The notes: generated by a model not told the origin, from the sequence alone. 63,780 bases of DNA, filler included, from Candidatus Woesearchaeota archaeon (GCA_003650545.1; 6 parts of 6 records of this genome joined end to end with filler, not necessarily neighbours in it); one strand, 5' to 3'; shown: positions 1,226 to 54,902, counted from the whole stretch's first letter. Program-made: numbers and translations.

Positions 1226-2404
1226 ATGGAACTAGAAAACAAACTAATAAAATCCCTTGAAGATCTAGCAAACAATCAAATTAGCATTAGCTCTAATGAT
1301 TTTGACAGCTTAAAACTAAGCAATGATCTAAGCGAATATATTTTAGAAAGACTCAATACCCGCTTAGCTAAAATCTCAGATAGTGAAGAGGCAGACAACA
1401 CAGACCTAAGAGAATACGCATTAGACGAAGTTGTTAATTATTTTAGCTATAACAAAAATGCTATAGATAGAGCAGATAGTAGAGCAGATAGAGCCATGCG
1501 TGTGGAAGACAATCTATTAATTGTAGAATCTACAAATGGTGATGTCAGCTCAACACATTCTCTTGGTCCAGTAGCATCTTCGCTTGTTGCAAAAAAAATA
1601 CTAGAGTCATTAAAAATAGCTAAGAATTATATGCAAGCAATAACGAATAAAAAATTATCTACAATTGATCAATCAACTGGATTTTATAACAAATTTCATT
1701 ATTATGATACTTTAGCTAGGAACATTGCTGTTTGTATTAAAAAGAACACTGATCTAGGCCTTGTAATGTATGATATAGACCATTTTAAACTTTACAACAA
1801 GACATTTGGCCACCAGAAATCAGATACTATAATAAAAGAACTTTCTAAATTAATAAGCGAGAATGTTAAAGCTTCTGATTTTATAGCAAGATTTGGTGGA
1901 GAAGAATTCAATATAATACTTAATCAAGAAAATATTAATGGAGCTAGAAATGTTGCTAGAAGACTAAGAAGAATTACAGAAAACAGAAGTTCTGGTTGGA
2001 TTAAAAGCAAAAAATACAATGGTATAACAATAAGCATAGGATACACTTCTTTAGGAAATACACCAGAGGTTAGGTTAATTTATGATACTAATGAGCTTCC
2101 GTTATTGATTGATTATATTTATGCAAAAGACAACGGCGGAATTATAGAATCAACAAAACAGATAGGTAAACAAAGATTAAGATATTTAATAACAATATAC
2201 GAAGAGGCAATCTCAGCAAAGGTTCAGATTCCTGACTTTAGTTCAGGAAGTGTTGGCGAACTATTTGAGACCAACCAAAGATTTAGGAATTATGTTGCTG
2301 CGTTCTTATTACATTCAAAAGTAAATACTGCAATGAACTATGCTAAGAAGAAAAGAAACTGTATTAGGCAATATTCCAAAAAAATGTCCCTCATAAGAGA
2401 CTAA
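1226..2404 (+). CDS. GGDEF-domain protein (putative diguanylate cyclase)
   Basis: DQSTGFYN, YDIDHFK, ARFGGEEF, ITISIG and AMNYAK..RN motifs; ~90-aa insertion near the domain C-terminus. Confidence 0.85.
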   Translation: MELENKLIKSLEDLANNQISISSNDFDSLKLSNDLSEYILERLNTRLAKISDSEEADNTDLREYALDEVVNYFSYNKNAIDRADSRADRAMRVEDNLLIVESTNGDVSSTHSLGPVASSLVAKKILESLKIAKNYMQAITNKKLSTIDQSTGFYNKFHYYDTLARNIAVCIKKNTDLGLVMYDIDHFKLYNKTFGHQKSDTIIKELSKLISENVKASDFIARFGGEEFNIILNQENINGARNVARRLRRITENRSSGWIKSKKYNGITISIGYTSLGNTPEVRLIYDTNELPLLIDYIYAKDNGGIIESTKQIGKQRLRYLITIYEEAISAKVQIPDFSSGSVGELFETNQRFRNYVAAFLLHSKVNTAMNYAKKKRNCIRQYSKKMSLIRD

Positions 2405-2540
2405 TTTTTTCTAATTTTTTCTGTATGTTCATATCTGTATGTTCATATAGACTCTTTTCGAGAAATGTTTATATATCTCAAAGATATACTTCATTACTAA
2501 GCGATAATTACTGATTATTTTAGATGATTTTGGGGGGGTT

Positions 2541-3023
2541 ATGAAATCTATGCAAACTAGCAGAGATCGCATCACAGGGCTATATACATTGTCTCATGCA
2601 AAAATCACATTAGCAGATAAGTTAAAGGAGTGTGATGAACACATGAATAAGCTTTCTATGTTTTATATAGTTTTTCCGAATGCCAGCATGCTATCAGTTG
2701 ATGCGTTAGGTAAAGCAATTGGAGAATTGGAAAAAAATCACTCAGGACTTTCAATTGATTATGTTGCTTACATAGCAGGTAGTTCTTTTTTCGCGTACTT
2801 TCATCATGTTGGAAATGCTAAAAATATTCCTGCAATGTCTGTTAGATCACGCATAATCGAGGTTATCTCCAGATCAACAGATATGGAATTTGAGGTTATC
2901 GCAACCACAAGACAGCCAATGCAGAATGTTAATAAGCATGATTATGAAGCTGAGTCAGAGAAAATACTTCAATACGATCTTTCTAATAAAATTATTAATT
3001 TGATGAATAAATACTTAAAATAA
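2541..3023 (+). CDS. degenerate GGDEF-like small protein
   Basis: Starts with DRITGLYT (D-x-x-TGL motif); AYIAGSSF where GG(D/E)EF is expected. Confidence 0.4.
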   Translation: MKSMQTSRDRITGLYTLSHAKITLADKLKECDEHMNKLSMFYIVFPNASMLSVDALGKAIGELEKNHSGLSIDYVAYIAGSSFFAYFHHVGNAKNIPAMSVRSRIIEVISRSTDMEFEVIATTRQPMQNVNKHDYEAESEKILQYDLSNKIINLMNKYLK

Positions 3024-18897: not shown

Positions 18898-20496
18898 CTA
18901 ATGCCCTGATGGAAATAATTCACCTTGTGTTCTCCTGTATTTTTGTTCTGCTTGTTTTGATTCTTTTCTCTTTTTTGCGATCATGCGTTGATTTTTATTC
19001 GACCTTTTCGGATAATAACGCTTAAATACATTTATCTTGTGACCTTGCTTTATTATACGTTTTTCAGTAAAATAACATTGATTGCAATACACCGTATTAT
19101 CTGGAGTGTGATGGCAAATATAGAAGTTTGGATTTGATAGAAGATTGAGATAGTATGGGTGAATCGCTTTGGCCGTATATTGGCCAGATGGATTGCCTAA
19201 GCGATTAGGGAGACTAGACCACTGCCCTGTTTTGTATTTGCCCTCTTCAAGACGACTTTCAGGAAGCAACCTTAAGTCAGAATAACTATGACCTGTCACT
19301 TCGACTGCACATTCTTTAGTATAAAACCTAAATGGTGTGAACACAACCTTGTAGCCTGACTCAATCAGTTCAATTGCTCTAGAAAAATTTTTATGTTTTG
19401 CAACTTCAGGCGGCACAGAGGCATCGCCAACGATTCTAAACGAGACATCTACCCCTGCTTTTTTATACATTTCAGCCATGCTAAAACGAAACTCATTGTC
19501 ACATCCACGAGCACAAACACCTGGTTCAAGCTCGTCTTTTCCTATGCTATAAGAGAGGTTGGCTTTTGTTGCAACCAACAAACGCGCAATTTCAGAATCA
19601 AAATCAAGATGTTTTGTTATAACTAGAGGACGGTAGCCTGTTTGCAGGATACCTTCCAGGGCGTCAATGAAGTTTTCTCTTATAGAGATAGTGCCCGGAT
19701 CGCTATCTTTGCCTAAGCGAATAACTCCGTGATCCTTAAAATCATCTTCTTTTAACTTTTTCATGTGTTCTTTGAAATCTATTAACCCATTAATTATCAA
19801 TTCAGGAGATACTTTATATCTGCACATGTCAAAAGGATTGTGTTGTTTTCTTCCTGCATAACAGTACAAGCAACAGTTATTTTGATCAAATGAACCATCT
19901 GGTAGAGTGTTACTTGGGCAACTAGAGCTAAAATCTAAGTTAATATCACAAACACAATCTTCAATATATTCAGATTTGCCAATCTTCAATTTAACAGGTT
20001 TCAGATTTCTGTATTGCCTTGGTTTCATTGTTTCCCAGATAGGCAGAAGATTTAGGGCTGCATCAGAGAATATTGGTTGTTTTGACAAAGCATAGAGCAA
20101 GCGGTTGATTTCGCCATTTTTTATAACCATTCCGTCAAAGTTAAAACCCGAGTGCATTCTCATTGGAACATAAACTCTCTGAAAACTCTTGTCATCTAAG
20201 TTGACAGTGTAACATTTTAACCTGGTTAATAATCCAAAAATGTTTTTCCTGTTGGCCTTTGGTTTTTCACCATGGAAAATTATTTTCCAGTCTCTTAAAA
20301 TGCGTAAATCAATCCAACGGTCATCAACATATTTCAGTATTAATGCTAATAAGTCGTAGCAAGCAAGACTACTAAGGAAAATGTTATAGCTGTATTTGCC
20401 ATCTAATGCTCGCTTTTCTATTAAGATCTTACCATTGACCTGGTGAACTCTTGTTTCTTCACCTTCAGCCATCCATAAATCTACATTATTATCCAT
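18898..20496 (-). CDS. radical-SAM-like protein (SplB-like core) with N-terminal extension
   Basis: C-x14-CCLYCYA (expanded CxxxCxxC), IRLGKDSDP, LVITK, C-terminal CHH...CNQC. Confidence 0.65.
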   Translation of the reverse strand: MDNNVDLWMAEGEETRVHQVNGKILIEKRALDGKYSYNIFLSSLACYDLLALILKYVDDRWIDLRILRDWKIIFHGEKPKANRKNIFGLLTRLKCYTVNLDDKSFQRVYVPMRMHSGFNFDGMVIKNGEINRLLYALSKQPIFSDAALNLLPIWETMKPRQYRNLKPVKLKIGKSEYIEDCVCDINLDFSSSCPSNTLPDGSFDQNNCCLYCYAGRKQHNPFDMCRYKVSPELIINGLIDFKEHMKKLKEDDFKDHGVIRLGKDSDPGTISIRENFIDALEGILQTGYRPLVITKHLDFDSEIARLLVATKANLSYSIGKDELEPGVCARGCDNEFRFSMAEMYKKAGVDVSFRIVGDASVPPEVAKHKNFSRAIELIESGYKVVFTPFRFYTKECAVEVTGHSYSDLRLLPESRLEEGKYKTGQWSSLPNRLGNPSGQYTAKAIHPYYLNLLSNPNFYICHHTPDNTVYCNQCYFTEKRIIKQGHKINVFKRYYPKRSNKNQRMIAKKRKESKQAEQKYRRTQGELFPSGH

Positions 20497-22817: not shown

Positions 22818-22984
22818 AGGGTTCAGAGATAATTGTATATATATAAATGTTAGTGAATATAAATGTTAGTGGAAGATGCACTTGCGATTGTTTATAACTA
22901 TTTTGCAGCCTATTTTTAGCCTATTTTGTAGTTTATTCTACAAAATGAGGTGCGGTTATGGAACTGCCTAATTAAAGAAAAGAA

Positions 22985-23152
22985 TGCGGGTGACGGGATT
23001 TGAGCCCGCGACCTTTCTCCGTAATCAGATTGCTCTGAAACACTCTAGATTTCGCCTGGTTGAGTTTAATCATAGCCATAGGGCTCATCACTCAAATAAT
23101 ATGAGTATCGCTGCGTAGCACTAGCGCTCTAACCAGACTGAGCTACACCCGC
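22985..23152 (-). tRNA. tRNA(CAT), probably elongator Met, with four introns: 23107-23120 (30/31), 23051-23099 (37/38) containing nested 23053-23090, and 23015-23044 (43/44)
   Basis: Acceptor GCGGGTG/CACCCGC, D-arm GCTC/GAGC. Removing the inserts gives a 75-nt cloverleaf with CTAGA-CTCATAA-TCTAG and variable loop AGGTC; BHB-like motifs at each junction. Confidence 0.8.
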
Positions 23153-23251
23153 ATTCTATTTCAGAATACTAAGACATTTTTAAAGGTTTCTACTAGTCAT
23201 TAATCTTCTATAAAAAAACTTAAATACCTTTGTTTATAAGCTGTAATTATT

Positions 23252-54820: not shown

Positions 54821-54902
<82 letters not shown>

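Follow-up and report, generated by a model that had tools for sequence, protein, structure and literature searches.

The window analysed here, that is, the whole 63,780-nucleotide stretch of DNA from Candidatus Woesearchaeota archaeon (GCA_003650545.1), is a chain of contigs, and on one of them (G000:C36) it carries a 168-nt tRNA-Met(CAT) gene at 22985..23152 on the minus strand, consisting of four exon pieces and three introns. The Rfam tRNA model RF00005 matched this interval with 40.2 bits (gathering score 29); in the alignment the anticodon arm was opened by a 72-nt gap, and the variable region held ~30 surplus bases. ARAGORN missed the gene in its unspliced form, and the only tRNA that it reported in the window was an uninterrupted tRNA-Val(CAC) at 54821..54898 (-). 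Splicing was then performed in silico by removing 23120..23107 (14 nt), 23099..23051 (49 nt) and 23044..23015 (30 nt), and ARAGORN folded the product as a 75-nt tRNA-Met(cat) with a standard cloverleaf. This confirmed both the identity of the gene given in the original prediction and its expectation that standard finders would overlook a multi-intron tRNA-Met gene. All exon pieces lie on the minus strand and can be aligned with homologs. Exon 1 (23121..23152) provides positions 1-30, comprising the 5′ strand of the acceptor stem, the D arm and the start of the anticodon stem; exon 2 (23100..23106) is a 7-nt micro-exon, A31-A37, that contains the CAT anticodon; exon 3 (23045..23050) spans A38-G43; and exon 4 (22985..23014) supplies the variable region, the T arm (loop CTCAAAT), the 3′ strand of the acceptor stem and A73.

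Because the spliced tRNA has a G1-C72 pair and its anticodon stem is without three consecutive G-C pairs, textbook rules identify it as an elongator rather than an initiator. Relatives L012, L020 and L021 possess tRNA-Ile(TAT) genes, which argues for Met and against Ile2. The flanks of the gene are complementary, as had been claimed: the leader AGAAT (23153..23157 (-)) matches A73 plus the trailer TTCT (22981..22985), lengthening the acceptor stem by 5 bp. When 10 further tRNA genes from this genome were inspected by hand, none reached three such leader/trailer pairs; the pairing could be either chance or a processing helix. Further upstream, TTTAAAAAT at 23176..23184 (-), 24-32 nt before tRNA position 1, resembles an archaeal TATA box by eye. 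Among sequencing runs, this DNA was traced to a single DNA run, possibly that of the source sample, and to no RNA run.

Intron 1 (14 nt; 23107..23120 (-)) lies between positions 30 and 31, and its strict BHB motif was exactly as first described. In a scan of all BHB placements it displayed a central helix, CGCT/AGCG, with 4/4 Watson-Crick pairs, bulges AG↓T and AT↓A, an outer helix GAG/CTC of 3 bp and an inner helix of 2 bp. By hand, 30/31 introns built on the same helices were recognized in L004, L009, L073 and L074, and position 28 forms a T:A, T-G or C:G pair. Intron 3 (30 nt; 23015..23044 (-)) was assigned to 43/44. The insertion and its GCAA-capped hairpin were borne out, but the placement is ambiguous, as 43/44, 44/45 and 45/46 all yield an identical product, and the motif is relaxed: by hand, and in agreement with the fold, its central helix pairs at 3/4 positions (39-41, with A38 mismatched), and it has an inner helix of 3 bp and no outer helix. 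Although intron 3 is missing in most homologs, 43/44 introns of the same layout were identified by hand in L010 (central helix 4/4) and L072 (3/4), together with a 44/45 version in L071. The side introns at 30/31 and 43/44 are thus shared with relatives, and we therefore regard these positions as recurrent sites with a fixed architecture.

Intron 2 (49 nt; 23051..23099 (-)) occupies the canonical 37/38 site. A DNA search of 60 relatives, all from the same order but from other families, gave matches at 70-81% identity that unexpectedly continued across the insert. A gapped-pattern scan of metagenomes for closer relatives yielded a single contig of 12,303 bases, equal in length to contig C36 itself. 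A covariance model was built from 12 aligned homologs, and its matches proved widespread in the order (151 genomes searched, three of them unpublished and used for the count only). We parsed 44 genes from 44 genomes, of which 36 were the best matches and 8 were chosen for long match length, the extra length in the latter likely reflecting additional introns. Following the sequence CTCATA, all 44 genes have the arrangement TGAG-NN-NNGA-hairpin-NNT-GA. In the gene studied here (all elements on the minus strand) this begins with TGAGTG (23089..23094) and continues with a D′-like box, ATGA (23085..23088), which would form the non-bulged strand of a K-turn and corresponds to NNGA in 44/44 genes. 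Next come a C-stem hairpin, GCC, a 4-nt loop and GGC (23075..23084), represented by a hairpin of 8-16 nt in every gene, and a C′-like box, TATGAT (23069..23074), in which a 3-nt bulge precedes GA (NNT-GA in 44/44). Among the first 36 genes the D′-like box reads ATGA in 26 and CTGA in 6, with TTGA, AAGA, GAGA and CCGA once each; the NNT bulge is GAT in 35/44 genes, and L019 has the textbook boxes CTGA and TGATGA. The hairpin stem covaries across the 44 genes (GGC/GCC, GCC/GGC, TCC/GGA, GAC/GTC, CTC/GAG and others). Tandem G-A, stem and 3-nt bulge are thus all present in sequence in 44/44 genes, as predicted for a K-turn, and judged by these elements the layout of intron 2 is that of a one-kink (C′/D′-like) K-turn in which a true stem replaces the loop.

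The TGAG preceding the D′-like box is complementary to the micro-exon. With the guide numbered upstream from the box, base 5 lies opposite C34 in 44/44 genes; base 3 pairs with C32, base 4 with U33 and base 6 with A35, and the partner of base 2 is position 31, so that here TGAGT pairs with A35-A31. In all 44 genes guide base 2 is the complement of position 31 (23 A:T, 21 G:C); these are counts of genes and not of evolutionary events, and since the relatives are not independent the covariation may represent as little as one ancestral switch. The resulting guide-target hairpin is contained in the minimum-energy fold of the precursor (-57.1 kcal/mol), which also holds the intron-1 helices. Classical box C/D guides have two kinks and form duplexes of ~10 bp; with one kink and a 5-bp duplex, intron 2 is not a box C/D RNA of that kind. 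A full box C/D RNA composed of GTGATGA (box C), which opens the 38-nt intron of the original prediction, and the CTGA of the 30-nt intron (box D) was considered and rejected: that CTGA is not a missing box D, because most homologs are without the 30-nt intron, and no CTGA stands in its place.

Intron 2 is not universal. Examination of 12 short matches of the covariance model revealed Met-like genes with no intron (L056, L066), a 32-nt intron of a different kind (L057), other CAT tRNAs that are again free of introns (L060-L062, L065) and GAT tRNAs (L058, L063, L064). The remaining two, the tRNA-Met genes of L055 (G052) and L059 (G025), carry introns of 18 and 15 nt at 37/38 that have a CTCA/TGAG central helix and no K-turn; these mini-introns have the appearance of a K-turn intron after deletion of the K-turn, or else of the form from which it arose. 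A separate observation concerns the 3′ part of intron 2 (AAC-Y-R-GG), which is complementary to the D loop CCTGGTT; in the present gene the D loop reads TCTGGTT and faces CCAGG, the complementarity spanning 23051..23064 with 23131..23140 (-). With a consensus D loop applied to all homologs, the longest run averaged 6.3, versus 4.6 in shuffles, and reached at least 7 in 19/35 genes.

In box C/D RNPs the target base that faces guide position 5, counted upstream from the box, is 2′-O-methylated, and the genome encodes fibrillarin, Nop5 and L7Ae, the proteins of such a particle. We propose that the gene probably specifies a functional elongator tRNA-Met(CAU) with three introns, the 49-nt one of which would carry a K-turn guide directed at C34. 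The K-turn might instead be real without being a methylation guide, with L7Ae shaping the precursor for EndA or the intron acting in trans. The single kink and a duplex limited to 5 bp fit such a role, and the complementarity to the D loop hints at a wider scaffolding function. Against it stand the place of C34 at N+5 in 44/44 genes and the covariation at position 31, and a C34-directed layout recurs in a tRNA-Leu(CAA) gene of the same genome. Furthermore, haloarchaea use box C/D RNPs to introduce Cm34 into their elongator tRNA-Met. Cm34 of the human elongator tRNA-Met is due to box C/D RNPs as well (PMC6601510), making this modification a known product of such particles. A K-turn without guide function is consequently unlikely.

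The gene just mentioned, tRNA-Leu(CAA) on G000:C14 (-), is heavily interrupted, with ~270 nt upstream of and including a T arm at reverse-strand position 19636. It shows a one-kink design after the anticodon (TTGAG-TG-ATGA, hairpin, AATGA) whose guide pairs with A31-A36, with C34 again at N+5. The tRNA-Phe(GAA) gene (G000:C3:73982-74101 (+)) has an anticodon-side intron with the K-turn elements TGATGA, GGC-TTA-GCC and AATGAT; here AGATCT upstream of the box is complementary to positions 36-41, and U39 would be at N+5.

According to the guide model, intron 2 would be removed as one unit, and the 37/38 splice motif was accordingly compared across genes. In the as-encoded motif, bases -6 to -3 of the intron 3′ end pair with C32-A35, the usual strand being (T/C)GGG. 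Of 36 genes, 17 have a 4/4 central helix, 13 have 3/4 and 6 have 2/4; most are thus 4/4 or 3/4, so the 37/38 introns can be read as single BHB units. The present gene belongs to the last class, since GGCG pairs only with C32 and C34, and in this respect the claim that the ends of the 49-nt insert do not form a BHB as encoded was justified. Weak helices paired at 32 and 34 only are also found in L036, L039, L050 and L053, and L029 is 2/4 at 32 and 33. The outer helix is 5 bp long. The inner helix, in register with the splice sites, consists of 1 bp, 2 mismatches and then 5 bp formed by TTGAG with CTCAA (23060..23064 (-)); an in-register inner helix occurs in 8/34 homologs, the nearest of which, L004, pairs at 8/8 positions, and the seven others retain GAG in register. 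With a 2/4 central helix and two mismatches in the inner helix, one-step cleavage at 37/38 is not assured. Other placements were set aside: shifting the 37/38 site by -1 gives the same product with a helix that is no better (by hand), and a motif made of the 5′ site at 30/31 and the 3′ site at 37/38 has a 4/4 helix, CGCT/GGCG, but no flanking helices, and its removal would delete the anticodon.

The original prediction had resolved the 49-nt insert differently, as two of four introns, one nested in the other and removed in order: EndA would first excise 38 nt at 23053..23090 and then an 11-nt canonical intron at 37/38. Several features speak for such a scheme. Besides the poor motif as encoded, the inner central helix TTTG/CAGG is 4/4 if two G-U pairs are counted with the two Watson-Crick pairs. 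In-silico removal of the 38 nt does yield CTCA/TGAG, bulged at TA↓T and AA↓A, that is, a perfect 4-bp central helix with the 5-bp anticodon stem as outer helix, and this "outer intron" resembles the real mini-introns of L055 and L059, which also have CTCA/TGAG. The inner motif, however, was weaker than claimed. It has no outer helix, its inner helix meets an A-A mismatch after a single base pair, and it fails the filter of our BHB scan, which demands a flanking helix of 2 bp or more. Nor is it conserved: a 4/4 inner central helix is peculiar to this gene, and among 35 homologs one is 3/4 and the rest are 0-2, including all five homologs that share the weak as-encoded helix, none of which has a 4/4 inner helix.

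Folding energies point in the same direction. With the inner BHB forced, the precursor has an energy of -40.0 kcal/mol, compared with -51.6 kcal/mol for the conserved intron fold, so that the nested configuration lies 11.6 kcal/mol above the latter and 17 kcal/mol above the minimum-energy fold. Forming it would require melting of the conserved K-turn and of the TTGAG/CTCAA helix, and the K-turn boxes would have to pair with CTCAAC. The GATGAG/CTCAAC inner helix cited for the 38-nt intron exists because the D′-like box plus the first base of the hairpin repeats TGAG. The outer motif does appear in silico after removal of the 38 nt, but its TGAG is already explained as the guide: the CTCA/TGAG duplex continues into position 31, with complementarity in 44/44 genes and covariation, instead of stopping at a bulge after four pairs as a BHB central helix would, and as read from these pairings the apparent outer motif is the guide-target duplex. 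Because the guide pairing covaries at position 31 and the inner BHB is 4/4 only here, two-step removal is unsupported, and the 49-nt insert behaves as one homologous unit in 44/44 genes. A literature search for nested tRNA introns in archaea brought up nothing relevant, and so gave no confirmation of the original prediction's statement that they are known mainly from Thermoproteales. Taken together, nesting appears improbable, and we retain the single K-turn guide intron as the preferred reading.

The enzyme that would cut this intron was sought in the genome, which measures 1.64 Mb at 36% GC and is 85% complete. One Pfam PF01974 match was obtained, a 176-aa ORF (G000:C6) of the single-unit kind whose best relatives of solved structure are the archaeal catalytic units of the M. 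kandleri, N. equitans (alpha) and M. jannaschii enzymes; no second EndA subunit was found in the 85% complete genome. Single-unit EndA was long held to require strict motifs. The protein is 60-72% identical to proteins from Woesearchaeota, Nanoarchaeota or Nanoarchaeia records, in keeping with the Woesearchaeota-type genome that had been supposed from the window, and a Methanosarcinales label on some of these relatives is taken to be a mislabel. The EndA gene, at 1474..2004 (-) of L001, is divergent from a 314-aa ORF at 2078..3022 (+) with an HWHGDH motif; this ORF looks like a putative RNase Z, which would place two tRNA-processing genes side by side.

Few tRNA genes could be recognized in the same genome. 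Rfam gave 11 tRNA matches at E up to 1, of which 7 were above the cut-off; ARAGORN reported 4 tRNAs, or 7 with its intron option; a tRNA-arm scan of low yield recovered 8 tRNA-like genes whose D and T arms are both intact; and ~11 tRNA-type T arms were present among 20 scan matches in 1.64 Mb. With so few intact tRNAs, the majority of the tRNA genes must either have a D or T arm that is interrupted or be unassembled. Several of the other tRNA genes that were found are long and interrupted. The original prediction had raised the question of another elongator Met gene in the bin. No second Met or initiator tRNA was detected in the genome by DNA similarity or with the covariance model, and scans for CAT anticodon arms, intact and intron-split, returned 10 and 28 matches, none of them tRNA-like; the gene studied here is the only CAT-anticodon tRNA found, and a second Met or initiator gene could be hidden by heavy interruption. 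In the course of this survey a stretch on G000:C2 (-), at reverse-strand position ~82571, was encountered that resembles 23S rRNA domain V; it seems to hold a ~50-nt insertion, possibly an rRNA intron.

According to the guide model, the precursor would adopt two folds. In the first, UGAGU pairs with A31-A35 and sets C34 against guide base 5; L7Ae would bind the single K-turn formed by the D′-like ATGA, the GC hairpin and the C′-like TATGA, and Nop5-fibrillarin would methylate C34, with Cm34 as the likely product. In the second, CUCAA would be the partner of the guide bases, which completes the inner helix at 37/38, and EndA would then excise the 49 nt at the weak 37/38 motif in one step. As the guide bases pair with either A31-A35 or CUCAA, guiding and splicing would use alternative folds. 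C32-C34 are in addition the outer helix of the 30/31 motif, and the three competing partners of the micro-exon imply sequential steps. L7Ae binding, methylation, the order of steps and the one-step cut at 37/38 are all predictions drawn from the sequence.

A variant of this scheme carries the competition further and makes the micro-exon a timing device that fixes the processing order. The three partners of C32-A35, each excluding the others, would be the D-stem strand (outer helix at 30/31), the guide, and the intron 3′ end (central helix at 37/38). In this gene the third pairing would have decayed so far that excision starts with the K-turn module as a nested intron; what is left would be a canonical intron of 11 nt, similar to the mini-introns of the two relatives. 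It seems improbable that all of this holds here, and we continue with the single guide intron removed as a unit. Finally, it is very improbable that the gene is a decaying pseudogene whose weak 37/38 and 43/44 motifs no longer allow splicing: the central helix at 37/38 is 2/4, an outer helix is absent at 43/44, and an assembly that is 85% complete could lack another Met gene, but the exon pieces are all intact and give a clean cloverleaf, the K-turn, guide and strict 30/31 motif are preserved, the weak 37/38 pattern is shared with L036, L039, L050 and L053 (and 2/4 at positions 32/33 with L029), the 43/44 layout recurs in L072, and no other CAT-anticodon tRNA was found in the genome.

Several known systems resemble parts of this arrangement. 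Intron-borne guides are classical for tRNA-Trp, and in Euryarchaeota the box C/D guide in the pre-tRNA-Trp intron reportedly methylates its own exons, C34 included, as described by Clouet d'Orval in 2001. The intron described here would likewise be a guide to its own exon, with guide pairing and splice motif predicted from the sequence to be alternative folds. The pre-tRNA-Trp intron, in contrast, contains C/D and C′/D′ motifs and two ~10-nt guides, whereas here there is one kink and 5 bp. In N. equitans, the elongator tRNA-Met has a 66-nt intron that is described as a stable C/D box-like RNA (Randau, 2012; PMC3491384). The two introns share the tRNA, the 37/38 site, a DPANN host and box C/D-type elements; in that article, the N. 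equitans intron is given one box C and one box D, and its target is unnamed (PMC3491384). Unlike it, the present intron is 49 nt long, has a single internal C′/D′-type kink around a hairpin, is flanked by two further introns and has a 5-base guide that would be aimed at its own C34.

Multi-intron tRNA genes are familiar from Thermoproteales, for which "a maximum of three introns" is quoted (Sugahara, 2008, as cited by Fujishima and Kanai, 2014; PMC4033280). The present gene is similar in having three EndA-type introns at canonical and non-canonical sites, some with relaxed motifs. It differs in belonging to a Woesearchaeota-type DPANN genome in which a single-unit EndA, and not a heterotetramer, was found. 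The closest relative of the gene, the 204-nt tRNA-Met of L004 (G002:C35, locus 1427-1630 (-)), has four apparent insertions, located by hand in the D loop, at 30/31, at 37/38 with the K-turn and in the T loop; with borders drawn in this way it exceeds the three-intron maximum quoted in PMC4033280. In DPANN, an association of alpha4 EndA carrying an extra loop with disruption of tRNA genes has been described, and it was noted that tRNA sets are incomplete (Kaneta, 2018; PMC5829648). The genome analysed here is like these in having a single 176-aa EndA and most of its tRNA genes hidden. The likeness lies in these two features. By alignment, the region that precedes the catalytic histidine has 6 residues fewer in this EndA than in the catalytic subunit of N. 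equitans.

These results indicate that a tRNA gene essential for translation can escape standard annotation in DPANN genomes. The 30/31 and 43/44 sites recur across the order with a fixed helix architecture, and they should thus be useful for intron-aware tRNA finders. The results also show how a sequence resembling a splice motif may be a methylation guide, and how a tidy "nested intron" can mislead. In the tRNA-Met gene of this archaeon, splicing signals and a predicted self-targeting guide would compete for the same seven exon bases, and the question of whether modification precedes splicing becomes directly testable.
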